Shown: in pieces, positions 1 to 13,176 of the stretch
Numbering within the stretch: the stretch's first letter is position 1
Layout: each line of letters starts with the position of its first letter
Assembly: GCA_040905465.1 (NCBI GenBank)
Contig: JBBDRK010000050.1
Location: 1-16,426 of the forward strand
Origin: Trueperaceae bacterium
GTDB lineage: Bacteria > Deinococcota > Deinococci > Deinococcales > Trueperaceae
Length of the DNA stretch: 16,426 nucleotides
Direction of reading: 5' to 3'
Translations under genes and position numbers: made by a program
The notes under the pieces: generated by a model
Databases searched by the model: none
What the model was told of the DNA's origin: nothing
Seen by the model: only the letters and a program-made list of their open reading frames with translations

Positions 1-214
1 GTTCGCCGTGTTCGAAAACACTTGCCAACAGAAGCGTTGAAACTCCTCCCGCAATTTGGGCGCCTGGGATGAGTGGAGCTAGTGGCGCAACCGGCTGGAG
101 GCACTGAAGATCGAGGGCAGCAGGCCTCCTTCCGTGTCGACCCGTTTGCCGAATGGCAAGACCCAGGCAGGCATCCCGTGCAGAGCGGGACAGGGGCCCA
201 ACGGGAAGGTACTT
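1..214 (-). mobile_element. Probable IS110-family insertion sequence, non-coding left end (transposase would lie left of the window); right boundary about 212-216
   Basis: The minus strand carries TTGCC-ATTC-GGCAA, CGGGTCGACACGGAAG, TCGATCTTCAGTGCC and AGCCGGTTGCGCCACTAGCT, which I recall from leaders of one IS110 transposase subgroup. A -10-like TACCTT (211-206) sits at the boundary, there are no terminal inverted repeats, and the neighbouring gene loses protein-like character here. Recognition is from memory; no transposase is in the window. Confidence 0.6.
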
Positions 215-782
215 GGTGGTCGCCACCGGTGGCCAGGCGGTGACTACCGGGCCGGACGGCCGGTTCGAGTTCCCGGCGCTTTCGGTTGGAGAGCACCTGA
301 TTCACGTCGCCATCGATGATGCGCTGGCGCCCAATCAGATCCTGACACCGGCTGCCCCGCACCTCGTTAACATCGCCGAAGCGCGGAGCACACGTGTGGA
401 CTTCGAGATAATCACCGGTGCCTCCGTTACAGGCGTACTTCGGGTGCAAAGTCCGGAAGATGCCGTCGAAACCGTCGACGACATCGCTACTGGAGATGAG
501 CTGGCAAGCGGAGTCCGGATCGAGCTGAGCAACGGAACGACCACCGTTCATGCGGTGACAGACGCGAAGGGAACGTTTCGCATCAATCGCGTCGCGGCGG
601 GCGACTGGACGATCCGCGTCGCCGACCGCGATCTCCCCGAGAACTACCTTATCGAGCCAAATGAGCGATCGCTGACGCTCCAGCCCGGCGACATCGAACG
701 CGTCGAATTCCAGTTGATTCCCGTCGTTCGGCGGATCCGGTTCGAAGAAGGCGGAACCCTGACTCCGCCCAGCCTTCCCTGA
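213..782 (+). CDS. C-terminal portion of a carboxypeptidase-regulatory-like/CnaB-type beta-sandwich repeat surface protein, probably 5'-truncated
   Basis: Two repeats of the T(D/G)xxGxFx(F/I)xx(L/V)xxGx(H/W) pattern (AVTTGPDGRFEFPALSVGEH; AVTDAKGTFRINRVAAGDW). The frame is closed upstream by TGA at 105-107. The ORF-track N-terminus (153-212) has no signal peptide and falls in the putative IS end. Confidence 0.6.
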   Translation: MVVATGGQAVTTGPDGRFEFPALSVGEHLIHVAIDDALAPNQILTPAAPHLVNIAEARSTRVDFEIITGASVTGVLRVQSPEDAVETVDDIATGDELASGVRIELSNGTTTVHAVTDAKGTFRINRVAAGDWTIRVADRDLPENYLIEPNERSLTLQPGDIERVEFQLIPVVRRIRFEEGGTLTPPSLP

Positions 783-792
783 GAACGCAAGC

Positions 793-831
793 AGCAACCC
801 CCGGCGCTGCTAGCGGCGTCGGGGGTTGTTT
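793..831 (+). terminator. Intrinsic terminator hairpin between the surface-protein gene and the convergent tRNA operon
   Basis: AGCAACCCCCGGCGCTG-CTAG-CGGCGTCGGGGGTTGTT: 17-bp stem whose three imperfect pairs are G-U on the + strand, ending in TTGTTT, 10 nt after the stop at 782. Confidence 0.75.
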
Positions 832-852
832 CGTGCCCATCGGGCTCTTTTG

Positions 853-929
<77 letters not shown>

Positions 930-969
930 GCGTTGTGTCCGCAACCGGGTCTTCTGGCGGTGTGCGGTG

Positions 970-1062
970 TGGCGGAGAGGGAGGGATTCGAACCCTCGAT
1001 AGAGGTTTTGCCCCTATACTCCCTTAGCAGGGGAGCGCCTTCAGCCGCTCGGCCACCTCTCC
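970..1062 (-). tRNA. tRNA-Ser(GCT)
   Basis: GGAGAGG/CCTCTCC acceptor stem, CTCCC-CTGCTAA-GGGAG anticodon arm, long variable arm, GTTCGAATC, G discriminator + CCA; 93 nt. Confidence 0.98.
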
Positions 1063-1108
1063 AGGAGTTCTAAGACGCGCCTCTCGAACGCGCTGCGCAG
1101 ACATCTTC

Positions 1109-1198
1109 TGGCGGAGGGTGAGGGATTCGAACCCCCGGTAGGGCGAGCCCTACTGCGGTTTTCAAGACCGCCGCTTTCAACCGCTCAGCCAACCCTCC
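1109..1198 (-). tRNA. tRNA-Ser(TGA)
   Basis: GGAGGGT/ACCCTCC acceptor stem, GCGGT-CTTGAAA-ACCGC anticodon arm, long variable arm GTAGGGC-TC-GCCCTAC, G discriminator + CCA; 90 nt. Confidence 0.98.
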
Positions 1199-1243
1199 GG
1201 TCAGCAACAGACCTGCCCGAAAGCCGTCCGGTCAGCGTCAGCG

Positions 1244-1273
1244 AGTATACATAGCGCCCGGCGGAAGTGTCAA
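1244..1273 (-). promoter_or_regulatory. Sigma70-type promoter of the tRNA operon
   Basis: TTGACA (1273-1268), 18-nt spacer, TATACT (1249-1244), followed by a GC-rich discriminator, about 45 nt upstream of tRNA-Ser(TGA). Confidence 0.85.
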
Positions 1274-2016
1274 CGCGTTCGGCGACGTCCGGGAATCGCG
1301 TCCGGGGGCTGGTCCGCGGCCCAGCGAGCCTGGCTCCACAGCCCCCTCAGCGCCGCAACCTCGCGCTTCGAGAGCGCCGCTCGGTCGAGCATGCGCCTGA
1401 ACATGTGCTCGACACTCGGCGCCTTCAGCGCGTCGGTGTAGCCGATGTGGAGCAGCGTGTCGACCAACTGGGAGATCATCGGCTCGATCTCCTCGCGAGT
1501 CGCCGCCTCGACCGCCTGGGCGCCGTCGGCAGACGATGGGAGCAACTGCGGCCCGGATCGAACGAACCACTCGTAGGCGATCACGTTGACGGCCTGAGCC
1601 AGATTGAGCGAGGCATAGTCGGCCGTCGGTATTCGCACGGCGGCTTGGCACAGGTCCAGCTCTGTGTTGCTCAGGCCGGTGTCTTCGGGACCGAACATCA
1701 CCGCACCACCTTCGACCGGCAACCCTGCCACCGCCGGCCTGGGCGCCAGTACCTCGAACGAGGGCGACGCTCGCAGCCTCGCGGTGGTTCCGAGAACGCG
1801 GGTTCGGCCGGCAAGCGCTTCGCCGGCGCTACCGACAATCCTGGCCCGGTCGAGCACGTCGGCGGCGTGCGAGGCGAGGGCATACGCCTGCCGGTCGAGA
1901 CGACAACGAGGCGCCACCAGCACCAGATCGACAAGTCCGAAGTTCTTCATGGCACGAGCCACGCTGCCCACGTTGCCGCTGTGCTTCGTTGCTACCAGGA
2001 TTATCCGGAGGCTCAC
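1270..2016 (-). CDS. trmJ: SPOUT-family tRNA methyltransferase, TrmJ/LasT (TrmH group 1) type
   Basis: Motifs GNVGSVARAMKNFG, GTTAR, FGPEDTGLSNTEL, SLNLAQAVNVIAYE and C-terminal LSKREVAALRG; 248 aa, GTG start. Confidence 0.88.
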   Translation of the reverse strand: MSLRIILVATKHSGNVGSVARAMKNFGLVDLVLVAPRCRLDRQAYALASHAADVLDRARIVGSAGEALAGRTRVLGTTARLRASPSFEVLAPRPAVAGLPVEGGAVMFGPEDTGLSNTELDLCQAAVRIPTADYASLNLAQAVNVIAYEWFVRSGPQLLPSSADGAQAVEAATREEIEPMISQLVDTLLHIGYTDALKAPSVEHMFRRMLDRAALSKREVAALRGLWSQARWAADQPPDAIPGRRRTR

Positions 2017-2022
2017 CGGTTC

Positions 2023-2031
2023 AGGATAACA
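2023..2031 (-). promoter_or_regulatory. Extended -10 element of a leaderless promoter for the trmJ-like gene
   Basis: TGT-TATCCT-GAACCG-GTG: TGn + TANNNT, 6 nt before the start codon, with no Shine-Dalgarno. Confidence 0.65.
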
Positions 2032-2076
2032 GCGAGCTTCCCCGCCCGCTCAGGCGCTGCCTTCCCGTGCAATGGC

Positions 2077-2100
2077 AACGGCGGTCCGAAGACCGCCGCC
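2077..2100 (-). terminator. cUUCGg-capped hairpin after rpsT (terminator or 3' stabiliser)
   Basis: Minus strand GGCGGCGGTC-TTCG-GACCGCCGTT, 21 nt after the rpsT stop; the U-tract is weak. Confidence 0.55.
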
Positions 2101-2121
2101 AATACCGCGAAAACGAACCGC

Positions 2122-2403
2122 TCAGGCCGGCTTCTGCTCGGCCCGGGCGGCGTTCACGTGGCGCGCCAGGCGCGCTTTCTTGCGTGCCGCGTTGTTCTTG
2201 TGTATGGTCGAGCCCTTGGCGGCCTTGTCTATGAGGCTCTGAGCGACCTTTTCGAACTTTACTGCGCTCTCGATGTCGCCGGCTTCGGCAGCAGCGACCG
2301 CCTTCTTCGAGAAGGTGCGGATCATGCTCTTCTTGGCGCGGTTCGCCAACCGGGCCCGTTCGGACTGCCGGTGGTATTTCATCGCAGACTGACTTCTGGC
2401 CAT
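2122..2403 (-). CDS. rpsT: 30S ribosomal protein S20
   Basis: [25 protein letters not shown]...[24 protein letters not shown]; 93 aa, basic; AAGGAG Shine-Dalgarno upstream of the ATG. Confidence 0.97.
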
Positions 2404-2478
2404 GCTTCTCCTTCAGGGCAGTTGGATCTTCAGTGGGTGAGGGGCGATTCTGTGCCCCATCCTGCCAATAACCCATAA

Positions 2479-2508
2479 ATCCTAGCACGGCGGCCGCCGG
2501 AGGCGCAA
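2479..2508 (-). promoter_or_regulatory. Probable rpsT promoter
   Basis: TTGCGC (2508-2503), 18-nt spacer, TAGGAT (2484-2479) preceded by TGC (extended -10). Confidence 0.6.
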
Positions 2509-2906
2509 CGCGCGGGAGACGGCCCGCGGCACGGCCGTCAAAGATGTGCCGTCGAAAACGACGCTGTATCCGGAGTCGGGCTGACGCGTAAGAGTTGTGT
2601 AAGGTGGCCCGTCTAGAATTATGGTTGGTCGATCCGGTTCCGTGTGAACCGGTAAGGCTGCGCTCGAGGAGACTGGGGAACCGAAACCAACAAGTTGCGC
2701 ACAACCGCGTGCAGCGACCGCCAAGCGGCGTGAGCTCGGTCTTTTCGGGCGGACGCGAGGTATTCGGCAGGGCAGAGAAACCAGGGACGATGAGGCCGAA
2801 CAGCAACCAGCAGCCGGAGTGGCGGAGCCTTCACGCCAGCTCCGAACCGAGGCAGACGCAGTCGGGTGAAACACAGGGTCTACCGGCAGTCCTGTCGCGG
2901 CTCGAC

Positions 2907-3467
2907 ATGAGGCGACGGCCGTCGTTGCTCCTCGTCGCGCTCACTGTCTTGCTGGCGACCCTCGCAGCCTGCAGTGGCCAGCCGGTCTACGAGACGGTGT
3001 CAGCGATCAGCCTGACCGCAGACGACCTGCTCGAGCCGAATGGTGACCCAATACTGTCGGTCGCGGGCGCCTTCGAGCGCACGGTCGACGGTAACGAGAT
3101 CAGGCTCGATCTGGAGACACTCGATCGCTTCGGCGTGGTCGAATACACCATCTTCGATCCCTGGTTGAAGACCGACGTGACATACAGCGGTGTACTCATG
3201 GCTACCATCCTCGACACGCTGGAAGTGGCGTCCACAGCCGAAATCGTCGGATTGTCGGCGCTCGACGACTATCGCGTAGAGATTCCTGTCGATGACATCC
3301 GCGAGTGGCCCATCTTACTCGCCACCAGACGAGACGGACAGCCTCTGAGAATCTCGGACGGCGGACCCAGTCGCGTCATCTATCCCGTACATGCATTCCG
3401 CGACGCAGCCAATGCCGAATACAGGGCGAACTGGATCTGGAACGTCGCAAGGGTCGAGATTCGATGA
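2907..3467 (+). CDS. Lipoprotein with a molybdopterin-oxidoreductase (SUOX/Oxidored_molyb) fold lacking the Mo-ligating Cys; PruR-like putative pterin-binding protein
   Basis: From ATG 2907: MRRR + hydrophobic core + lipobox LAA-C22. Motifs ILSVAG, DPW, YSGV, ALDDY, ILLA, DGQPL, GGPSRVIYP, WIWNV. No Cys in the mature chain beyond the lipidated one. 186 aa. An alternative in-frame ATG exists at 2790. Confidence 0.8.
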   Translation: MRRRPSLLLVALTVLLATLAACSGQPVYETVSAISLTADDLLEPNGDPILSVAGAFERTVDGNEIRLDLETLDRFGVVEYTIFDPWLKTDVTYSGVLMATILDTLEVASTAEIVGLSALDDYRVEIPVDDIREWPILLATRRDGQPLRISDGGPSRVIYPVHAFRDAANAEYRANWIWNVARVEIR

Positions 3468-5965
3468 CCGTAACCGCGCTTTCGGCGGGAAGGAGACTCG
3501 CCCAGTGGCAGGGGGGCCTGTTCATCCTCGTCTGCGCCCTCAGTATCGGGCTCATGGCGACCCTCGTTCAGGCAGTGAGAAACGTGTCTGCGACGATCGA
3601 CAGCTATGAAAGCAGCGGTTACGTCGTCACCACGCTCGCCAACTTGCAGCGTGAGGCGCTTCGACTGCATCTGGAAGTCGATGACCTGTTGGCGGGGCGG
3701 AGCGATGACAGCGCCGGCCTCGAACTCCAGCGGCAGCTCCTCCAGCAGCAGTTGAATATCCTGACTCCGCAGATGATCGCCGCCGAGGCCGGCGGTACGG
3801 GCAGCGATGGGGGCATCGGCAGCGTAACGGAACAACTGGCATCGGTGGACAGACTCCTGGCGATCATGCCGCCTGTGTTCAGCGGCTCGACCGATCTCGA
3901 ACGCGAGCAGGACCTGACCGACGGGCTGCGTGGACTGGAGCGAAGCATCAAGCAGCTCTACGATCGTGAAGAGAGTTCGTTCTTCACGGAAATGGGCGAA
4001 GAGCTACGCAGTCAGCAGAGCCTACAGCGCCTGGTGCTGGCGCTGGCGGCCATGGTCCCGCTCTTCACGGTCTCTTTGATCCTGTCGCTACGGCACACTT
4101 TCGGCAATCGATTCAAGGCCGCCTATCGTCAACTGGATCGCGAAATGCGCGAACGCCGCAAGATAGAGCAATTCGAGCAGGACCGGGGCCGGGTACTCGA
4201 GTTGGTGATGCAGGACGCTCCGGTCTCCCAGATTCTCGAGGAGATCCGCGACTCGCTCACTCACCAGCGACCGACGTCGAGCCCCACTATCCTGATTCGC
4301 GCGGAAGCCGGTCTGGTCCACGGCGCCGGAGCTCGGCTGCCGGAGGCGCTGGAGCGTCGACTGGGCGCCGACGGTCTCGACTCCGGCCAGGCAACGTTCA
4401 CAGGACTGCCGAACGACATCGATGGCGAGCAGTGGTTGATGCGGTCGGACGACGACTCCTGCATTCGCTTCGGACACGACGGCGCCACCTATCTTGCTGC
4501 CCCGATTGCCTCCAACGGCGATACCGGGCCTGCCTTTGGTTTCGTGGTGCTCGATCGACCAGGTTTCGATCCTGGTGTCGACGGTGATGAAGGCCGGTTG
4601 CTGTCACGGGTCGGGCAACTCGCCGGACTTGCGCTCGAACACAAGCTGCTGGCGGAACAACTCGCCCACCGAGCACTGCACGACCCACTGACGGACCTGG
4701 GAAACAGCAGGTTGCTCCAGTTGAACCTGGAACGGGCCATAGATCTAGCCGGGCGGGAGCACAATTCCTTGGCCCTCATCTTCATCGACCTCGATCGATT
4801 CAAATGGATCAACGACAGTCAGGGGCACGAGGCGGGTGACAAGCTGCTGGTACAGGTAGCGGAACGACTGCGGGAGTGCGTGGGCACCGGCAACGAGATT
4901 TCACGGCTGGGCGGCGACGAATTCGTGCTGGTCATCCCGCGCGCCCAGCGGATCGCGGGGATCGCCGAACTCGCCGCGGAGCTCAATCGCAGCCTGGCCG
5001 AACCGTTCACACTGGGCGGCAATGAGTACTGCATCTCCGCCAGCATCGGCATCAGCATCTTTCCCGGTGATGGCTCGAGCGCCGAAGCGCTGCTCAGAAG
5101 CGCCGACTATGCAATGTATGAGGCAAAAAAGCGTGGCAAGAACGGTTTCGTCTTCGCGTCGCAGACCGACGAGCGTCAGATCGCGCAAAGCGTCGCCCTC
5201 GAGAGCGCCCTGCGAAACGCCCTGGAACATGACGAATTCCACCTCGTGTTTCAGCCTTACTTCCACGCCGAGTCGAGCCATCCCGCGGGGGTGGAGGCGC
5301 TGTTGCGCTGGCAGCATCATGAGTTCGGGCTCGTCCCTCCGGGAACCTTTATTCCGATCGCCGAGCGCGCCGGATTGATCGTCGAGATCGGCAGATGGGT
5401 CTTGCGGCAGGCCTGCCTTCAGGCGGCCAGGCATCTGCATCCGGGACTGCGGGTGGCCGTCAACGTGTCGGCGGTCCAGTTCCTGCAATCCGGCTTCCTG
5501 GACGATGTCAACGCTGCGCTGGTCACGAGCGGGCTGGCGGCGAACATGCTGGAGTTGGAGTTGACCGAGAGCGTGCTGATGGAGGATCTGGAGCTCGCCG
5601 AACAGCGCCTCAGCGCGCTCCGGGAATTGGGGGTGGCGGTCGCTATCGACGACTTCGGGACCGGCTACTCGTCCCTGTTCTACCTGCACCGGCTGCCCAT
5701 CGACACTCTCAAGATCGATCGCTTCTTCATCCAGGAGATCGAGACCGCCGGTCGCACCAGCAAGCATGCAAGGACCCTGGTCGAGACCATCGTACATATG
5801 GCTCACGGACTCGGCCTCGAGGTAGTCGCCGAGGGCGTCGAGACCACCAGTCAGCTCGCGTTGGTCCGCAAGGCAGGCTGTGACAGAGTCCAGGGACATC
5901 TGCTGGGCGGGGCGTCACCGCTGGCGGAGCTCAGCTTGGAGCGCCCTGCAGCCTTGATTCACTGA
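3464..5965 (+). CDS. Membrane-bound diguanylate cyclase/phosphodiesterase (2 TM + extracytoplasmic domain, GAF-like, GGDEF, EAL); DcpA-like
   Basis: ATGA overlap with the upstream gene. Two hydrophobic segments flank about 150 aa. Cyclase motifs HDPLT, DLDRFKWINDSQGHEAGD, GGDEF (4910-4924). Phosphodiesterase motifs EALLRW (5294), VNVS, ELTES, DDFGTGYSS, KIDR, EGVE, QG. 833 aa. Confidence 0.93.
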   Translation: MTVTALSAGRRLAQWQGGLFILVCALSIGLMATLVQAVRNVSATIDSYESSGYVVTTLANLQREALRLHLEVDDLLAGRSDDSAGLELQRQLLQQQLNILTPQMIAAEAGGTGSDGGIGSVTEQLASVDRLLAIMPPVFSGSTDLEREQDLTDGLRGLERSIKQLYDREESSFFTEMGEELRSQQSLQRLVLALAAMVPLFTVSLILSLRHTFGNRFKAAYRQLDREMRERRKIEQFEQDRGRVLELVMQDAPVSQILEEIRDSLTHQRPTSSPTILIRAEAGLVHGAGARLPEALERRLGADGLDSGQATFTGLPNDIDGEQWLMRSDDDSCIRFGHDGATYLAAPIASNGDTGPAFGFVVLDRPGFDPGVDGDEGRLLSRVGQLAGLALEHKLLAEQLAHRALHDPLTDLGNSRLLQLNLERAIDLAGREHNSLALIFIDLDRFKWINDSQGHEAGDKLLVQVAERLRECVGTGNEISRLGGDEFVLVIPRAQRIAGIAELAAELNRSLAEPFTLGGNEYCISASIGISIFPGDGSSAEALLRSADYAMYEAKKRGKNGFVFASQTDERQIAQSVALESALRNALEHDEFHLVFQPYFHAESSHPAGVEALLRWQHHEFGLVPPGTFIPIAERAGLIVEIGRWVLRQACLQAARHLHPGLRVAVNVSAVQFLQSGFLDDVNAALVTSGLAANMLELELTESVLMEDLELAEQRLSALRELGVAVAIDDFGTGYSSLFYLHRLPIDTLKIDRFFIQEIETAGRTSKHARTLVETIVHMAHGLGLEVVAEGVETTSQLALVRKAGCDRVQGHLLGGASPLAELSLERPAALIH

Positions 5966-6084
5966 TCGTCACGCGCCTGTCATCACCACCGAGGTACCGA
6001 GGTATCTATCAGCAGACGTTCTCGGGCACTACACTGCTATTTACGGGGGCAGCGGAACCGCCGGGGGAAGGGTAACACCTTCCG

Positions 6085-6122
6085 AAAAAGAAGCCGGATC
6101 CACGGGGGCGGATCCGGCTTCT
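6085..6122 (-). terminator. Intrinsic terminator (possibly bidirectional) downstream of the HAD-methyltransferase pair
   Basis: Perfect 13-bp stem AGAAGCCGGATCC/GGATCCGGCTTCT (6089-6101/6110-6122) with an 8-nt loop, followed by TTTT on the minus strand. Confidence 0.8.
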
Positions 6123-6168
6123 GCTATTTGTGCACAAAGATGCAGGGCGGCGCGGGCGACTCTGCGCG

Positions 6169-6837
6169 TCAGCCCTCACTCTCGCCCACGGGCGAAACGG
6201 TGCGGCGGTAGACCACTACCAGCCAGAGGCCGACGTTCCGACCGAACACACGGGTGAAGCCGGCCCCTTCGATCAGCCCGGCCACTTCTCGCTCTCGGTG
6301 CACGAACGCGCGGAAGCCCGTTCCGGTAACCTTGACCAGCAGGTTCACGAGCGCCACCCCTGCCCGGTTCCACCATGTGTCGCGCGGGTATACCAACGCG
6401 CAGAGCAACTCGGCTCTGCCCACCGAAGCCGAAATCAGACCCGGCATATCGTCGTAGCAGCAGACGACCCGGTCGAGCGTCACGATCGTTGCAGGATCGA
6501 GGTCCGCTGCCAGATCGACGAAGTCTCCCTCGTAGAAGCGCATACTCTCGCCATGGCCCTGCCGCTCCGCTTCCTCTCGAGCGGCGTCGAGGTAGGCGGC
6601 TGAGGCGTCTACCAGCATGGCCAGCCGCGCCCCGTTATCGAGAAGGTGATTCGAGATCGCTCCGACGCCGCCGCCGATGTCCAGTACCGTAGCTCCGGCG
6701 ATGCCTTCGCTGGTCAGGGCGTCGAGCAGCATGCGGGTGGTAGCAGCAGGCCCGCGCTTCCGGTAGCGCCTCAGGTCGCCGCGGGCGATGCGCTTGCCGA
6801 AAACCTTGCGGATGCCGAGACATTGCTTGCAACCCAT
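6169..6837 (-). CDS. Class I SAM-dependent methyltransferase (distantly BchM/ChlM-like)
   Basis: Motif I VLDIGGGVG, acidic VDAS, GDFV, LDRVVCCY. ATG 6837 is preceded by GGAGAG, so it is preferred over TTG 6849. 222 aa. Confidence 0.85.
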   Translation of the reverse strand: MGCKQCLGIRKVFGKRIARGDLRRYRKRGPAATTRMLLDALTSEGIAGATVLDIGGGVGAISNHLLDNGARLAMLVDASAAYLDAAREEAERQGHGESMRFYEGDFVDLAADLDPATIVTLDRVVCCYDDMPGLISASVGRAELLCALVYPRDTWWNRAGVALVNLLVKVTGTGFRAFVHREREVAGLIEGAGFTRVFGRNVGLWLVVVYRRTVSPVGESEG

Positions 6838-6856
6838 CTTCTCTCCCAAGCAGGCT

Positions 6857-7504
6857 TCAGAAACCGGCCGCGGCTTTCAAGGCTGACAGACCCCCGTCGA
6901 AACCTTTGAGCAGAGGCCAGTCCGGTGGGAATGGCTGGCCAGCAGTTATCTCGTTCGGTACCACCACCACACTCATTCCGGCCGCCACAGCCGCCGTTGC
7001 GCCATTCAGGGAGTCCTCTATGGCGAGGGCCTCCTCGGGCCGGACGTCCAGCAGCCGCGCCGCCAGCGAGTAGAGTTCGGGGTTGGGCTTTACCCGCGCC
7101 ACATCATCGCGCGTGGCGATCGCCGAGAAGAACGACAATAGGTCGTGCCTGGCGAGCCACCGCCGCACCCACGCCCGGTCGCTGCTCGTGGCCAGCGCCA
7201 GCAGGTAGCCGGCGTCACGTGCCTCCACCAGGAGTTCGCCGATACCGGGCCGCAGATCCAGCTTGCCGACGTCGTCGATCACCGCCGCCGCCAACTCTTC
7301 CGCGAGCCGCTCACGATCGGCCAGGGCCCAGTCTGGCAGTGCCGACCATGGGTCGAAACCTCCCCAGGTGCCGATCCCCTGCTGCCAGAGCTCGAGTTCG
7401 AGCGTAAGCTCGTGCCGGCGATACAGCTCTTGCCACCGCCGGAACTCGGCAGTTTCGGTATCCAGGATCGTACCGTCGAAGTCGAAGACCAGTGCGCGGA
7501 GCAT
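6857..7504 (-). CDS. HAD-superfamily hydrolase, subfamily IA
   Basis: FDFDGTILDTE (motif I), ATSS (II), KPNPELY (III), IEDSLNGATAA (IV); 215 aa; TACAGT 5 nt before the ATG. Confidence 0.92.
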   Translation of the reverse strand: MLRALVFDFDGTILDTETAEFRRWQELYRRHELTLELELWQQGIGTWGGFDPWSALPDWALADRERLAEELAAAVIDDVGKLDLRPGIGELLVEARDAGYLLALATSSDRAWVRRWLARHDLLSFFSAIATRDDVARVKPNPELYSLAARLLDVRPEEALAIEDSLNGATAAVAAGMSVVVVPNEITAGQPFPPDWPLLKGFDGGLSALKAAAGF

Positions 7505-7624
7505 TACCCACTGTACCGGCCCGCGCTCTCACGAGAGACTTCAACTCAGGGCGTACCGCCGCATCCACGTCGCGGGCACGGCGATACCCAAGCCGTAGAG
7601 GTACCTGATGAGCTGCCCGTCACC

Positions 7625-9148
7625 TCAGCTCGCCAGCAGGAGCGGTGTCTCATCGGCGACAGGTGCGGCGTCTCCGTACCCATCTGGCGCCTCCTCGATG
7701 AAGGTGCAGTGCAGCGCTTTGACCGCGCTTTCCCTTTCCTCGGTCGGCACGAGGAACTGAACGTCGACGCCGCGGCCCGTCTCCTGTACCGAAATCGGCT
7801 CGATGCCGGCATCTGCCAGGGCCGTCAGAGCCTTGCGCATGACGCCGAGTCCCTTCAGGTCACGGCCGATGACCGATACCATCCCGGCGCGGCGCGTGTT
7901 GATCCGGGCGCAGGGATAGCGCTCGGCCAGGTCGCGCTCGACACGGCGAATCTTCTTCAGAGGCGCCTCGATGTGATGCACGATGGAATTGGCGTTGGAC
8001 ACCTTCGAAACGATGCGCAGGCGGTGGCGCGCGAGCACATCGAGAATGGCCGCGTCATACCCCTTCACACCCACCATGTCTTGCTCGAACAGTTCGAGGG
8101 ATGTGATGGGCAGGCCAGTAATCATTTCCACGCCGGGTCTGTCGGCGGGCTCGGCGTCGATCAACGTACCCGGGTCGTGGGGCTCGAAGGCGTTGGCAAC
8201 GCGCAAGGGGACGCCCGCCTGGCGCAGCTTCTTGGCAGCCTGCGGGTGGATCGCCTCCATGCCCATGTTCGACAGCTGGTCGGCTACGTCGTAGTTGGTG
8301 CGACCGATCTTGCGCACGTTGTCGGTTCCCACAAGGCGTGGGTCGGCGCTGGAGAGGTGAAACTCCTTATGGATTATCGCCTCGCGTGCGCCTGTCAATG
8401 CGGCGATCGTGGCGAAGGTCACCTCCGAATAACCGCGGTCGAACTCGCGCATGAGGCCCCCACGACACTGTGCGTAGCCGGTGGCAATCGGCAGTTCGCT
8501 CGCGATGTCCACCTCCTTGAAGGCGCCCTCGATCCGCGCCTCCAGCTCCGGCTGCGTTTCGTCGCGCCAGCCGGTGAGGTCGATGAGGCGGGCGTTGACG
8601 CCATGGCGGCGAAGGAGCAACGCAAGGTTGTTGGCCGAGTGGGCCTCCCCTAACGCCGACAGCATCTCACGGATGGTCTGCATGTGCTCGACGAGCTGGA
8701 AGTGCCCGTATGAGCACAGCCGCTGCAGGTCGATCAGGCAACAGCGCACTCCCTCGACACGTTCACGCACGAACTCGTCTGCAGCATGCCGGTCGCCGGC
8801 GTCTTCGAACATGTCCGAGTTGACGTCACGCATGGCTCGACCCACCGCGCTCAGCGCATCCATCCAGCCGTGCTCGTTGTCGGCATCGGCGAACAGGCCG
8901 TAGACGCCCGACTCACCGGATTTCTTGTGCTCCAGCAACCGGTCGGTGATGCCGCCGAAGGCGGATACCACGAAGACTCGGCCGTAGAGCGCGTCGCCAC
9001 CGCGCCCGCCTATCAGTATGGTGTCCAGCAACTCGCGGGCGCGGCTCATGGACGAGCCGCCGATCTTCTCGACAGTGTGGGCCGTGCGCTTGACCGTGTT
9101 CGCGTCGCGATCCGCTGCAACACGAACGTCTTCCGGAAGTCTTTTCAT
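7625..9148 (-). CDS. ask: Ectoine-associated aspartokinase (Ask_Ect); start uncertain (ATG 9148 or GTG 9175 overlapping the ectD stop)
   Basis: HTVEKIGGSSMSR, VVSAFGGITDRLLEHKKSG, FDRGYSE, IIHKEFHLSSADP, GMEAIHP, C-terminal ACT-like region; last gene of the ect operon. Confidence 0.93.
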   Translation of the reverse strand: MKRLPEDVRVAADRDANTVKRTAHTVEKIGGSSMSRARELLDTILIGGRGGDALYGRVFVVSAFGGITDRLLEHKKSGESGVYGLFADADNEHGWMDALSAVGRAMRDVNSDMFEDAGDRHAADEFVRERVEGVRCCLIDLQRLCSYGHFQLVEHMQTIREMLSALGEAHSANNLALLLRRHGVNARLIDLTGWRDETQPELEARIEGAFKEVDIASELPIATGYAQCRGGLMREFDRGYSEVTFATIAALTGAREAIIHKEFHLSSADPRLVGTDNVRKIGRTNYDVADQLSNMGMEAIHPQAAKKLRQAGVPLRVANAFEPHDPGTLIDAEPADRPGVEMITGLPITSLELFEQDMVGVKGYDAAILDVLARHRLRIVSKVSNANSIVHHIEAPLKKIRRVERDLAERYPCARINTRRAGMVSVIGRDLKGLGVMRKALTALADAGIEPISVQETGRGVDVQFLVPTEERESAVKALHCTFIEEAPDGYGDAAPVADETPLLLAS

Positions 9149-9171
9149 GTTTGTTGGTCCATTGCCTTTCG

Positions 9172-10104
9172 TCACACGAGTTTCCCGGAGGCAACCTCTA
9201 CGGCCTCTGCCTCATCACGCTGGGCAAGGAAATCTGGACGCGGCTTCTTGGCGCCGAAAGGCTCATCGAGCTGGTTCGACATGGCGTTGAACACGAAGAA
9301 CGCGTTGGAACGGGCGAAGGGCGTGATGTTGCCGTTCGAACCGTGCATGGTGTTGCAGTCGAACAGGACAAGCGTTCCTGCCTTGCCGGTGGCAGCCGTG
9401 ATTCCATGCTTTGAGGCGAGTTTGGTGAGCGCCTCGTGCGAGGGAACGCCCACTTCCTGCTTCTTGAGCGAGGATTTGTGGTTGTCCTCCGGCGTCTCCC
9501 CGGCACAGGCGATGAAGTGCTTGTGCGAGCCCGGCATCAGCATCAGGGGGCCGTTGAGCGCGTCGTTGTCGGTCAACAGCAGCGAGGCGGAAACGGCGCG
9601 CATGTGCGGCATGCCGTCCTCGGCGTGCCAGGTCTCGAAATCGGAGTGCCAGTAGAACTCCTTGCCCGTGAAGCCGGGCTTGTAGTTGAGGCGCGTCTGG
9701 AGGTAATAGACATCATCGCCGAGCAGGAAGCTGGCAATTCCAGCCAGTCGCCGGTCGCGTGCGAGCCGCTCGAAGAGCGGACTCTGCTCGGGCAGCTTGA
9801 AGACCGTGCGGACCTCGTCGGAGCCGGGTTCGGTTATGACGCTGCCTTCCTCGAGCTTACGCTCGCCGTTGCGGAGTGCGGCCGATTCGGCCGTCAGCGC
9901 CTTCACCTCCTCCTCGGAGAAAAGGTTTTTGAGCACGATGAAGCCGTCGCGGTCGAACTGGTCGGCTTGCTGCTCCGTCAGCGGAGCGTCGGTGCTCCAC
10001 TCGCTCGAAACCGTCCTGTCCTGGCGCGGCAGCCACTGCTCTTCCCGCAGGCGGGTCGGATACAGGTCCTTTCTTCGCTCGGTCGTCTGGGTGATTGCAG
10101 ACAT
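9172..10104 (-). CDS. ectD: Ectoine hydroxylase
   Basis: EctD signature FYWHSDFETWHAEDGMP, DLYPTR N-terminus, FDCNTMHGSNGNITPFARSN; AAGGAG Shine-Dalgarno. Confidence 0.97.
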   Translation of the reverse strand: MSAITQTTERRKDLYPTRLREEQWLPRQDRTVSSEWSTDAPLTEQQADQFDRDGFIVLKNLFSEEEVKALTAESAALRNGERKLEEGSVITEPGSDEVRTVFKLPEQSPLFERLARDRRLAGIASFLLGDDVYYLQTRLNYKPGFTGKEFYWHSDFETWHAEDGMPHMRAVSASLLLTDNDALNGPLMLMPGSHKHFIACAGETPEDNHKSSLKKQEVGVPSHEALTKLASKHGITAATGKAGTLVLFDCNTMHGSNGNITPFARSNAFFVFNAMSNQLDEPFGAKKPRPDFLAQRDEAEAVEVASGKLV

Positions 10105-10147
10105 TTTTTTCTCCTTACCTCGATGCTCTATGTTGGCTTTACGCGAT

Positions 10148-10546
10148 TCAAACCTGTTCGGCTGCCAGCAAATAGGAACCGTCGTCCTGGTGAACCTCGT
10201 TTCCCGTTACGGGCGGGTTGAACACGCAGGCCATGATCATGGGCTCTTCAGGATCGGCGCGCAGAATGTGCCGGTCGTTCTTGTCGAGCGCATAGACTAC
10301 GCCGGTCCGGACCGCGTGGACCTCGCCGGTCGCGAGGTCCTCGATCGAACCTGTGCCACCCAAGCAGTAGACGCTCTCGAGGTGGTTCTTGTAGTGCATC
10401 GGCAACTCGGCGCCGGCATGGATGGTGGTGATATGGAAGCTGAAGCCCATGCCGTCCGACTTCAGAAGCAGCCGCACGCTGTCCCACCCCTGCGAGAAGA
10501 CGTGACGGTCGGTGTTCTTGGCCTCGTGCAGGTCGCGTACGATCAT
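10148..10546 (-). CDS. ectC: L-ectoine synthase
   Basis: [64 protein letters not shown] overlap with ectB. Confidence 0.97.
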
Positions 10547-11847
10547 TGATTCACGGCTGCGACTTCCGTCGACCGGGCTATTTCCGTCACGGCTTGCTCC
10601 AGGATGTCGAGGCCGCGGGCGAAGGTCCCTTCGTCGATGGTGAGTGGCGCCAGCACCTTGACCACTTCGTCATGAGCGCCGGAGGTCTCGATGACGAGAC
10701 CGCCTTCGAAGCAGCGTGCACAGATCGCGCTCGCCAACTCGCCAGAACCGACGTCGATGCCGAGAAACATGCCCCTGCCCTTCAGCCGGGCAGCCGGAAG
10801 GGTCCCGGCTATCCTCGTCAAGCGTGACTTGAGGTAGTTGGCGCGCTCGGCCACCGTTTCCTGGAAGCGGCTATCGGCCCAGAATTTCTCGAGGGCGACA
10901 CGCGCGGTGACGAAGGCATGGTTGTTGCCGCGGAACGTCCCGTTGTGCTCGGCCGGGCCGAACAGGTCGTGTTCCGGCTTCACCAGAAGCGCCGCGAAGG
11001 GCAGTCCGAGGCCGGATAGGGACTTCGCCATGGTGATGATGTCGGGCTCGATCCCCATCTCCTCGAAGGAGAAGAACGAGCCGGTTCGGCCGATGCCGGC
11101 CTGGATGTCGTCGATGATCAGCAGGGCGCCATTCTCGCGGGCTATCTCGCTGACCCGGCGCACCCACTCGAACGAGGCGGCGTTCAGGCCGCCTTCGCCC
11201 TGCACCGTCTCCAGGATGATTGCCGCCGGCGGCTCGATGCCGCTTGCGGGCTCCGACAGCAGTCGTTCGAGCAGGTCCGCGGTGTCTACATCGTTACCCA
11301 GGGCCCCTTCGAACGGCATGCGGGTGACACCCGTAAGCGGAAGGCCGGCACCGCCGCGGTGATAGAGGTTGCCCGTGGCAGCCAATGCTCCCAGCGTCAC
11401 GCCGTGAAAGCCGTTGGTGAAGGCGATCACATTGGTCCTGCCCGTGGACTTGCGGGCAAGCTTGAGGGCAGCCTCGACGGCGTTGGAGCCCGTCGGGCCC
11501 ATGAACATCATGCGATGATCCATGCCGCGCGGCTTGAGAATGAGGCGCTCGAAGGTCTCCAGGAAGCCAGCCTTGGCGCTCGTGTGCATGTCGAGACCGT
11601 GGGCGATGCCGTCGCCGGCTATATGGTCGATGAGCGCTGCCTTGATGTCCGGGTCGTTGTGGCCGTAGTTGAGCGAGGAACAGCCGGCCAGGAAGTCGAT
11701 GTAATCGCGGCCGTCGCTGCCGGTGAGAACGGCGCCACGCGCCTTCTCGAACACGGTTGGAAAACTGCGGCTATAGCTTCGCACGGCAGATTCGCGCCGG
11801 TCGAATATGGCCTTGTCGTCCGTTGGTACGGTCGTCATGGTCGTCAT
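10543..11847 (-). CDS. ectB: Diaminobutyrate--2-oxoglutarate transaminase
   Basis: [60 protein letters not shown] lysine in [23 protein letters not shown] Shine-Dalgarno. Confidence 0.97.
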
Positions 11848-11950
11848 TTATTTTCCTTTCGGATTGGTCGTCTCGGGAAATCGATCTCGTAGGGGAGTTT
11901 CAGTATTGATTCGTATTCGGCCCGGAGTGCCCGGAGTAGAGTCTGGTCTG

Positions 11951-12505
11951 TCAGTTGGCGCTGCGCGCCTCTTCGGGCAGGGCGATAGTCACCATATGCT
12001 CGGTAACATGCGCACCGTCGAAATGGTCGTCCCTGCGGAAATAGGGCTCACTCGAGAGCTCTGCGCCTTTGCTGCGCGAGAATGACTTGAAAAGTGCCCA
12101 GCTTGCCGCATTGTCGAGCGTGATTGTGGTCTTCAGCCGGCGCACGTCGGCGCAAGCCTCGCGCTCCAGAAGCGCAGCGAGCATTTTCCTGGCGATGCCC
12201 TGGCCCTGGGCACTTTCGTCAACCGCAACCTGCCAGACGAACACTGTCTGCTGATCATCCGGCATGACGTAAGCCGAAACCCAGCCGACGAGCTCGCTAT
12301 CGCTCGCGCGCTCGGCTGCCACACAGGTGTCGCCGAAATGGTCACACTGGAGCAGGTTGCAGTAAAGGGAGTTTTCGTCGAGGGGCTCTGAGGACCTGAT
12401 CAGGCGCCAGACGGCCGCACCATCCTCGGTACGGGGCGTGCGGAACGCGATTTGGTCGGATCGGTCAGATCGTTCTTGCACTAGCTGGATGTTGCTGGTG
12501 GGCAT
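11951..12505 (-). CDS. ectA: L-2,4-diaminobutyrate acetyltransferase
   Basis: PLDENSLYCNLLQCDHF, GWVSAY, FVWQVAV, TTITLDNAASWALF, HFDGAHVTE; GGAGGAGG Shine-Dalgarno. Confidence 0.96.
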   Translation of the reverse strand: MPTSNIQLVQERSDRSDQIAFRTPRTEDGAAVWRLIRSSEPLDENSLYCNLLQCDHFGDTCVAAERASDSELVGWVSAYVMPDDQQTVFVWQVAVDESAQGQGIARKMLAALLEREACADVRRLKTTITLDNAASWALFKSFSRSKGAELSSEPYFRRDDHFDGAHVTEHMVTIALPEEARSAN

Positions 12506-12699: not shown

Positions 12700-13176
12700 A
12701 TGGAAAATCGCACCCAGACCACACTCATTGCGCTCAGGCGCATCCTGCGCGCCACGGAGCTCAATGCGCGTACGCTCGCCCGCGCGACGGGACTGACGAC
12801 TCCGCAACTCATCGTTCTCGAGATCGTTGCTGCGGCAGGACGCCTCACGCCGAAGGAGATAGCCGGGCGTGCCGGCGTCGGCCAAGCGACGGTATCGTCG
12901 CTGGTGGAAAAACTGGAGGCGCGTGAATTTGTGACGCGCAAACGAGCCGAACTGGACCGGCGTGCCGTCTGGGTGGCGCCCACGGAGGCCGGCCTGACCA
13001 TGCTCGAAGCGGCGCCCGACCCCCTGCAACGGACATTTTCGGAACAGTTCGAGCAGCTTCCCGACTGGGAGCAGGCCATGATCGTCGCGGCACTCGAAAA
13101 GGTCGGCTTGATGCTGAACGCAGGCGCGATCGACGCCTCGCCGCTTCTCGATGTCGGAGCGGTAGACCGTAAGTAG
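12700..13176 (+). CDS. ectR: MarR-family regulator of ectoine synthesis (EctR/CosR type)
   Basis: LIALRRILRATE, GLTTPQL, QATVSSLVEKLE, DRR wing, APDPLQ, WEQAMIVAALE, IDASPLL; divergent from ectA. Confidence 0.88.
   Translation: MENRTQTTLIALRRILRATELNARTLARATGLTTPQLIVLEIVAAAGRLTPKEIAGRAGVGQATVSSLVEKLEAREFVTRKRAELDRRAVWVAPTEAGLTMLEAAPDPLQRTFSEQFEQLPDWEQAMIVAALEKVGLMLNAGAIDASPLLDVGAVDRK

Follow-up and report, generated by a model that had tools for sequence, protein, structure and literature searches.

A Lipid-Anchored PruR-Like Protein and a DcpA-Type Cyclic di-GMP Enzyme: A Likely Signalling Pair in a Genome of the Deinococcales

Introduction

Is the two-protein arrangement by which Agrobacterium tumefaciens places cyclic di-GMP (c-di-GMP) under the control of pterins to be found outside the Proteobacteria? 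The question is raised by two overlapping genes within a 16,426-nt stretch of DNA (the window) from a Trueperaceae bacterium of the order Deinococcales, positions 1–16,426 of contig JBBDRK010000050.1 in a genome assembly of 3.53 Mb that is 95% complete. The first gene encodes a small lipoprotein, the second a membrane protein with GGDEF and EAL domains. A first-pass annotation, made from the sequence alone, took them for a divergent relative of PruR-DcpA, and the analysis presented here makes it likely that they do constitute an outside-in signalling pair of that type.

The PruR-DcpA pair of A. tumefaciens is Atu3496-Atu3495 (structures 7kos and 7kou), and homologous PruR structures are available from Klebsiella pneumoniae (7rkb), Vibrio vulnificus (7kom) and Vibrio cholerae (7kp2). 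PruR proteins bind pterins, with a preference for tetrahydromonapterin, and this is one of the criteria of the family. In the available text of PMC11194511, PruR is described as lacking the Cys that ligates molybdenum (Mo) and as having in its stead the Trp of a PW motif; the pterin ring lies between Y104 and W160 and receives a hydrogen bond from N102. DcpA-type sensors have two transmembrane (TM) segments around an outer domain of about 138–150 amino acids (190 in the figure of the review, PMC13259868) and a motif, WX7E, whose Trp and Glu are called invariant (PMC11194511). In the related PruR-DTB systems, PruR accompanies a DcpA-type outer domain carried on a TorS/BaeS-like kinase (PMC11194511, PMC13259868).

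How pterins control c-di-GMP has been worked out in a single alphaproteobacterium, and more than 5,500 pairs have been catalogued, in Proteobacteria only (PMC11194511; PMC13259868). The first-pass annotation likewise considered the system one described for Proteobacteria, and it is there only that the available text of these two papers treats it; neither text speaks of Deinococci or of phyla, nor the review of a lipoprotein in this sense. Dataset S1 of PMC11194511, with 5,496 rows, has no entry for Deinococc, Thermus, Truepera, Meiothermus, Firmicutes or Bacteroid, and the titles and abstracts among the literature matches listed, on PruR as well as on pterins and c-di-GMP in connection with Deinococcus, show no such system outside Proteobacteria. 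The published range may reflect the design of the survey's search.

The First Gene Encodes a Lipoprotein of the PruR Family

The features of the first gene are as follows.

2907..3467, forward strand: PruR-family binding protein, a lipoprotein of 186 amino acids (PDB search with phmmer, AlphaFold2 model, Foldseek)
2907..2972, forward strand: signal peptide and lipobox L-A-A-C, the codon of Cys22 at 2970..2972 (sequence, conserved Cys column)
3159..3164, forward strand: P85-W86, where enzymes of the sulfite oxidase (SUOX) fold have the loop with the Mo-ligating Cys (aligned to PW of 7rkb)
3264..3272, forward strand: D120-D121-Y122; by alignment to LALNDY of 7rkb, D120 falls in the place of the pterin-bonding Asn and Y122 in that of the stacking Tyr
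3438..3440, forward strand: W178, in the place of the second stacking residue, W160 of A. tumefaciens PruR (alignment to 7rkb)

In the N-terminus, MRRRPSLLLVALTVLLATLAAC, a few basic residues are followed by a hydrophobic core and a lipobox, the signal peptide and lipobox being assigned by rule from the sequence. Cys22, which the first-pass annotation had named as the anchor, is the sole Cys of the protein, and the mature part has none. The enzymes of lipoprotein maturation, Lgt and LspA, are encoded in the same genome. The start codon is probably best regarded as uncertain, because a further in-frame ATG, at 2790, could lengthen the protein by 39 residues before the signal peptide and because a database entry that is 99% identical begins at residue 7; by the same reading of the sequence, the mature protein would be unaffected.

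What family the protein belongs to is answered alike by sequence and by structure, although NCBIfam has no model for it. When the PDB was searched with phmmer, the only matches were four PruR sequences labelled "pterin binding protein": 7rkb (E-value 1.6e-19), 7kom (2.6e-18), 7kos/7kou (1.9e-16) and 7kp2 (1.7e-9), to which the lipoprotein is 26–28% identical. The AlphaFold2 model, computed from 40 relatives, has a pLDDT of 93.2, and when submitted to Foldseek it retrieved the PruR structures 7kos, 7kou, 7rkb, 7kom and 7kp2 at ranks 1 to 7 (E-values 8e-15 to 1e-10; TMt 0.86–0.94; root-mean-square deviation 1.3–2.2 Å for most), the top matches at TMt 0.91–0.94 and 1.3–1.6 Å. Sulfite dehydrogenases, sulfite oxidases and YedY rank below PruR, with E-values of 1.5e-6 and weaker and TMt of 0.23–0.40. 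The comparison with PruR structures that had been suggested thus puts PruR first by both routes.

Alignment to 7rkb bears out the initial description of a small, exported SUOX-fold protein with PW in place of Cys and a Cys-free mature domain: P85-W86 matches PW, ALDDY matches ALNDY, DGGP matches DKGP, and W178-N stands where PruR has W-Q. The residues that sandwich the pterin in A. tumefaciens PruR, Y104 and W160, are kept as Y122 and W178, so that of the three pterin contacts named in the available text of PMC11194511 two are retained, the third being changed from Asn to Asp. On the grounds of sequence and model, the lipoprotein is assigned to the PruR family and not to the Mo enzymes.

The Second Gene Encodes a DcpA-Type Sensor Enzyme

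The second gene begins within the end of the first.

3464..3467, forward strand: ATGA overlap of the stop codon TGA of gene 1 and the start codon ATG of gene 2 (sequence)
3464..5965, forward strand: DcpA-type sensor enzyme of 833 amino acids, in the order TM, four-helix outer domain, TM, GAF-like domain, GGDEF, EAL
3512..3574, forward strand: TM1, residues 17–37 (hydrophobic stretch)
3575..4024, forward strand: extracytoplasmic helical domain, residues 38–187, about 150 amino acids (AlphaFold2 model, hhalign)
3629..3655, forward strand: T56-X7-E64, counterpart of WX7E (profile-profile alignment)
4025..4090, forward strand: TM2, residues 188–209 (hydrophobic stretch)
4139..4663, forward strand: GAF-like cytoplasmic domain, residues 226–400 (ESM Atlas)
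4673..5143, forward strand: GGDEF domain, residues 404–560, motif intact (Pfam, 151.4 bits)
5207..5905, forward strand: EAL domain, residues 582–814, catalytic motifs present (Pfam, 232.1 bits)

The overlap is as the first-pass annotation read it, a sign of translational coupling, and its picture of a two-TM protein with a helical outer domain and intact GGDEF and EAL domains holds as well, by Pfam, motifs and model, except that the additional GAF-like domain had been missed. The motifs RLGGDEF, EALLRW, ELTES, DDFGTGYSS, KID and EGVE are all present. Because these motifs are present and G483–F487 and the EAL motifs are invariant among six homologues (alignment A3), both activities of the enzyme are plausible. 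The region between TM2 and GGDEF (residues 226–400) gave no Pfam match at 1e-5 in window positions 4100–4700 and no sequence match in the PDB. Its name, "GAF-like", comes from the ESM Atlas alone, where its language-model features score 0.94 to GAF clusters and the Atlas's own model of it reaches TM-scores of 0.68–0.73 to parts of GAF domains in all ten rows.

Residues 1–241, modelled with AlphaFold2 from four sequences, are all helix (6–76, 83–109, 117–134 and 142–240), in a four-helix arrangement of moderate confidence (pLDDT 70). Foldseek found no match in the PDB to this sensor model at E≤0.001; the weak rows are the four-helix sensors NarQ, Tsr, KinB and QseE. The relationship to known sensors was sought by profiles. 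A word-indexed search with residues 1–225 brought up five homologues, 32–75% identical, all GGDEF-EAL proteins and all with a motif of the TTLANLQRE type, and these together with the partner itself made up the window sensor profile (six sequences, later enlarged by two metagenome partners). The profile of DcpA/DTB sensors was made from the N-termini of ten proteins encoded after PruR homologues on plasmids of Proteobacteria, namely K. pneumoniae, Paracoccus, Aminobacter, Paroceanicella, A. tumefaciens, Azospirillum, Roseibium, Aureimonas, Rhizobium and Pantoea.

The two profiles were aligned by hhalign over 195 columns, from TM1 to TM2, with a probability of 94.9% and an E-value of 4.3e-8. With the TM segments removed, the outer domain alone gave 2.8e-5, and after the two metagenome partners were added the values became 6.8e-9 for the full sensor and 1.7e-6 for the outer domain. 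Reversed-sequence controls gave 0.0099 and 0.076. The match is not explained by a general composition of TM segments and helices, because three sets of two-TM helical kinase sensors from Deinococcales genomes reach only E 0.02–0.3 against the window sensor profile. These alignments argue that the partner's N-terminal sensor is homologous to the proteobacterial DcpA/DTB sensors.

Within the alignment, Thr56 and Glu64 correspond to the Trp and the Glu of WX7E, respectively, in agreement with the initial remark that Thr replaces a Trp eight residues before the conserved sensor Glu. T56 and E64 are invariant in all six sequences of A3, and the metagenome partners have T or A in the place of the Trp and keep the Glu.

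The Pairing Recurs

To see how widely the pairing recurs, I consider three kinds of loci, in each of which a sensor gene stands next to the PruR-like gene in every case examined; the expectation that the pairing would prove to be conserved is borne out to that extent. Alignment A4 found six metagenome loci, one of them too short; all five others have a two-TM sensor that visibly aligns with the partner's. These five represent two distinct systems, and one of their partners is a PAS-GGDEF-EAL protein of 800 amino acids. In genomes of the same order, all eight loci examined have a two-TM histidine kinase directly downstream of the PruR-like gene. On annotated plasmids the next gene encodes a sensor in 12 of 12 cases (an EAL-domain protein, histidine kinase, PAS protein or hybrid regulator), a count that leaves out one Halomonas locus lacking annotation. 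In addition, the longest contig listed for P0004, 71% identical to the lipoprotein, and that listed for P0157, 75% identical to the sensor, both have 12,014 bases, which suggests that the two lie on one contig.

Other searches yielded less. The metagenome scan with the sensor alignment A5 gave no match, nor did the single lipoprotein as a query against genome contigs, and the neighbourhood search of genome contigs with A4 found just three loci, all proteobacterial.

PruR-like proteins occur, many with lipoboxes, in Deinococcus and Thermus-like genomes (loci L013–L020; genomes G025, G026, G029, G033, G034 and G038), and on Deinococcus plasmids (L023, L024) such a protein is followed by a two-TM histidine kinase. 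The kinases encoded after these genes are of three kinds: one of 420 amino acids, one of about 940 with multiple PAS domains, and one of 425–460 followed by a secreted CAP-like protein. The place of WX7E is taken, by eye, by W-X7-Q or Y-X7-D. These PruR-DTB-like pairs are absent from the published table. The PruR-like protein of G033, a genome of the same order, is identical at 158 of 174 residues to a protein of the Deinococcus grandis plasmid pDEGR-1, in keeping with the non-proteobacterial host that was initially proposed, and its neighbouring kinase is 83–90% identical to the plasmid's counterpart.

The Lipoprotein Belongs to a Clade with Traits of Its Own

An exhaustive HMMER search for relatives of the lipoprotein returned 1,837 cluster representatives at E≤0.001, 613 of them at E≤1e-10. 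Alignment A1 comprises the lipoprotein and 39 single-domain proteins out of the best 56 matches (40 sequences). In it the Cys of the lipobox is at least 90% conserved, the consensus at the pocket is TALDDY, and W178 is invariant. Residues were counted over a larger set of 148 sequences, namely the listed matches of 130–260 amino acids plus the window lipoprotein. At position 120, 98 of them have Asp and 50 have Asn; at 86 the residue is W in 62 cases and F in 56, at 152 it is G in 67 cases and K in 27, and at 178 it is Trp in 145. A crude lipobox pattern is matched by 94.

The first-pass annotation had listed the lipobox and ALDDY/GGP/WN as differences from known PruR proteins. They are present, but because they are common among the 148 sequences, the lipobox, ALDDY and GGP are better regarded, from these counts, as traits of a clade than as peculiarities of this gene. 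A FastTree phylogeny combined the 148 with another 20 sequences, taken from loci that are named or belong to the same order; in it the lipoprotein groups with three metagenome sequences (support 0.999), inside an 83-tip clade that holds none of the Deinococcales or proteobacterial sequences. Ten close representatives were looked up, of which one has a taxon, a metagenome-assembled genome (MAG) of Anaerolineaceae, and the ESM Atlas clusters nearest to the lipoprotein are commonest in Chloroflexota. The notion of a divergent branch in Deinococcota consequently needs amendment: the host is in the Deinococcales, but the protein's own clade contains no Deinococcus or Thermus-like sequence and does contain that of the Anaerolineaceae MAG. 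The MAG protein is named "molybdopterin-dependent oxidoreductase", the kind of label that automated annotation had been expected to give.

The Pair Occupies an Accessory Segment

The surroundings of the two genes were compared by blastn (window positions 1–9200) with two genomes of the same genus, G001 and G002.

2417..6026, either strand: accessory segment of 3.6 kb holding both genes (blastn against same-genus genomes)
2417..2906, either strand: leader and presumed divergent promoter region, between rpsT (reverse strand) and the lipoprotein gene (forward strand)
6089..6122, forward strand: terminator-like hairpin after the operon, with a 13-bp stem and a T-rich tail (in the conserved flank)

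The flanks, 852–2416 (tRNAs, SpoU methylase, rpsT) and from 6027 to 7213 (methyltransferase, HAD hydrolase), are conserved at 66–77% identity and are contiguous in both genomes, where 274 nt (G001) or 621 nt (G002) stand in the place of 2417–6026. Homology stops 13 nt upstream of the start of rpsT, and at the other end 6029–6125, including the hairpin, is matched in G002. No PruR-like gene was found in either of these genomes (completeness 87% and 98%). Among 24 other genomes of the same family, nine have matches, all partial and weak (E 5.5e-11 to 3e-4, about residues 72–166), and the one that was read resembles the usual domain of a Mo enzyme. Within its genus the pair is thus an accessory insert, the two genes having been gained or lost as a unit, and gain is more likely than loss because the pair is absent from the sampled family.

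The GC content of the segment is 60–63%, as compared to 65% for the genome, and its GC content at third codon positions is like that of the neighbouring genes; because these values are unremarkable, composition neither supports nor excludes transfer. No direct repeat of at least 7 nt was seen to be shared by the segment ends. Within the leader (2417–2906), Rfam gave no match at E≤1, and no sigma-70-like promoter was found before the lipoprotein gene.

Several features of the neighbourhood may be recorded. The gene at 2122–2403 (reverse strand) is, by eye from its translation, that of ribosomal protein S20, upstream of which the same-genus genomes differ; at the variable spot G002 has a different small open reading frame (ORF) of about 100 amino acids. 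Left of the SpoU methylase gene, at 853–1198 (reverse strand), are genes for three tRNAs (Arg-ACG, Ser-GCT, Ser-TGA); the variable spot has its left end about 1.2 kb away. Farther to the right, at 7625–12505 (reverse strand), lie ectA, ectB, ectC, an ectD-like PhyH dioxygenase gene and an aspartate kinase gene, with a divergent MarR regulator gene at 12700–13176 (forward strand). Such an ectoine/hydroxyectoine cluster fits a salt-tolerant host.

Possible Pterin Supply and c-di-GMP Read-Out in the Genome

Whether the host could itself provide a pterin was judged from its genes. Two encode GTP cyclohydrolase I, FolE (contigs C29, 71159–71677, and C67, 63377–63898; 250 and 240 bits), and one encodes FolB. 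A search for short-chain dehydrogenases/reductases (SDRs) picked 35 ORFs by a motif that may miss some SDRs; 20 were fetched and 15 scanned. One of them (contig C52, 54940–55686) scores 338.6 bits with the NCBIfam model of TmpR, a bifunctional dihydropteridine/dihydrofolate reductase, above the cut-off of 325. The TmpR family is one known from Thermus, which agrees with a host in the Deinococcales. Because of the two FolE genes, the FolB gene and the TmpR-type SDR, reduced pterins can plausibly be made by the host. Neither PruA, FolM nor a pteridine reductase family is named in the best-25 NCBIfam lists of the 15 SDRs scanned, so the suggested search for a PruA/FolM-type reductase met with mixed success: a TmpR-type SDR is there, a match to the PruA or FolM families is not among the SDRs scanned.

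On some proteobacterial plasmids, PruR-DcpA pairs (L026 of Paracoccus, L028 of Aminobacter, L033 of Paroceanicella) adjoin pterin genes, namely folE2, a gene of the 6-carboxytetrahydropterin synthase type and, in one case, an SDR gene.

The genome has 13 GGDEF matches, as well as class II c-di-GMP riboswitches, four above the gathering score and one below; among 14 control genomes, only that of Deinococcus radiodurans gave such a riboswitch, which likewise agrees with the placing of the host. One lies in the window at 21–105 (forward strand; 66 bits, the gathering score being 53.5), at a distance of 2.8 kb from the pair, and precedes an ORF at 153–782 (forward strand) whose product, of 209 amino acids, has a CarboxypepD_reg domain. 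Through this riboswitch the output of the c-di-GMP enzymes might be read.

Proposed Mechanism and Competing Explanations

The reading that I favour, and consider likely, is that the two genes encode an outside-in signalling pair of the PruR-DcpA type. The first protein would be exported, cut at Cys22 and held on a membrane by its lipid anchor. Its pocket, which the model places in a cut-down sulfite-oxidase fold, would be shallow and free of metal-binding Cys, with a Tyr/Trp sandwich (Y122, W178) and an Asp (D120), and would most likely hold a small bicyclic heterocycle, a pterin being the best guess. The loaded lipoprotein might then dock on the four-helix outer domain of its partner, around the T56-X7-E64 helix, and the signal might pass through TM2 and the GAF-like domain to the intact GGDEF and EAL domains. 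The outcome would be a shift between the making and the breaking of c-di-GMP, which the cell could read at least via its class II riboswitches.

Several observations weigh against this reading. Two hallmark residues are replaced: the Asn that bonds the pterin (N102 of A. tumefaciens PruR) is Asp120, a departure from the PruR criterion, and the Trp of WX7E, called invariant, is Thr56, so that WX7E itself is lacking. The second-best match to the lipoprotein is P0008, a protein of 631 amino acids with four PruR-like repeats (E 6.7e-66 summed over the four). In pairwise phmmer comparisons, the sensor N-terminus (residues 1–225) scored 5 bits or less against 12 partner proteins of the named loci, which is not significant, and the homology detected by profiles is built on small ones, of 6–8 and 10 sequences. 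There is no pterin gene adjoining the pair, unlike the three proteobacterial loci, and the TmpR-type SDR is at most a candidate counterpart of PruA.

Some of these same observations lend themselves to a different explanation, in which architecture and docking are as proposed but the ligand is not of the monapterin or neopterin type, being instead molybdopterin or fragments of the molybdenum cofactor (Moco), folate, a flavin or lumazine, or another flat extracellular heterocycle. The change of Asn to Asp would fit, as would the fact that Trp86 is about as often Phe in the clade, the presence of the four-repeat lipoprotein P0008 among the nearest relatives, and the acquisition of the cassette without pterin genes. 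Yet the clamp on the pterin ring, the Tyr/Trp sandwich, is retained, the lipoprotein is in fold almost the same as neopterin-bound 7rkb, and pterins are commonly bound at their 2-amino/N3 edge by an Asp. I regard a ligand of another class as unlikely.

Lower still stands the idea that the two proteins do separate jobs, the lipoprotein as a helper in capture or uptake and the GGDEF-EAL protein as the sensor of some other cue, through its outer or GAF-like domain. A second sensory domain in the partner is what this would predict, but the ATGA overlap, the same pairing at every locus examined, a sensor domain that is specifically of the DcpA type and the lack of any transporter gene within the 3.6-kb segment make it quite improbable. 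That the lipoprotein is a small Mo oxidoreductase, as the automatic names of its relatives and a match to Pfam Oxidored_molyb (41.8 bits, cut-off 24) would have it, is scarcely credible and was rejected, given that only profile positions 65–146 of 169 are matched, that no Cys is available in the mature protein, that TMt to PruR reaches 0.94 as against about 0.29 to true sulfite oxidases and sulfite dehydrogenases, and that a separate full-size SUOX-type gene (131 bits) exists in the genome.

A broader reading may be ventured, tentatively and with more doubt than belief: the pair may be a member of a large lipid-anchored PruR-sensor branch, mainly outside Proteobacteria (Deinococcota, Chloroflexota and high-GC metagenome lineages), that docks via a T/A-X7-E helix, has an Asp-based pocket, perhaps for a different or foreign pterin or a related heterocycle, and travels as a self-contained two-gene cassette plugging an outside cue into the c-di-GMP network of its host.

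Significance and Comparison with Known Systems

The two-protein logic of PruR-DcpA would, on this evidence, exist in a genome of the Deinococcales and also, to judge from the relatives of the pair, in lineages of the Chloroflexota type and others. The pair shows which features such systems truly need, and it corrects the name "molybdopterin-dependent oxidoreductase" given to these genes. The published WX7E motif would miss the lipid-anchored branch. The 3.6-kb cassette, absent from sister genomes, together with the c-di-GMP-II riboswitches of the genome, offers a handy unit for studies of transfer and of ligand.

Compared with PruR-DcpA, the window pair has in common an exported SUOX-fold protein of small size that lacks the Mo-ligating Cys and has PW and the Tyr/Trp pocket; a binding-protein gene directly upstream of that for a two-TM protein with a helical outer domain of about 150 amino acids, GGDEF and EAL; and the Glu of WX7E. 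It differs in that its binding protein is lipid-anchored, whereas PruR is soluble in the periplasm, in having Asp for the pterin-bonding Asn, GGP for KGP and Thr for the Trp of WX7E, in the GAF-like domain before GGDEF, and in its Deinococcales host. It is because two hallmark residues, the pocket Asn and the WX7E Trp, are replaced that I file the pair as a variant of PruR-DcpA. What is new in it is the lipid anchor, the Asp pocket, T-X7-E, the GAF-like insert, its occurrence outside Proteobacteria and its mobility at the scale of a genus.

With PruR-DTB the pair shares the first gene and the type of sensor domain, but its output is turnover of c-di-GMP rather than phosphotransfer. The kinase sensors of the Deinococcales resemble the window sensor weakly, and their PruR-like proteins lie outside the lipoprotein's clade. 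P0008 has, like the window lipoprotein, a cut-down fold and a lipid anchor, but it consists of repeats, whereas the lipoprotein has one such domain only and is coupled to a sensor enzyme. Finally, the SUOX Mo enzymes (SorA, 2blf; chicken sulfite oxidase, 1sox; YedY/MsrP, 1xdq) have in common with the lipoprotein the core fold of their Moco-binding domain; unlike them, it has no Cys ligand, a shortened hairpin, a shorter cleft, and neither dimerisation nor haem domains.

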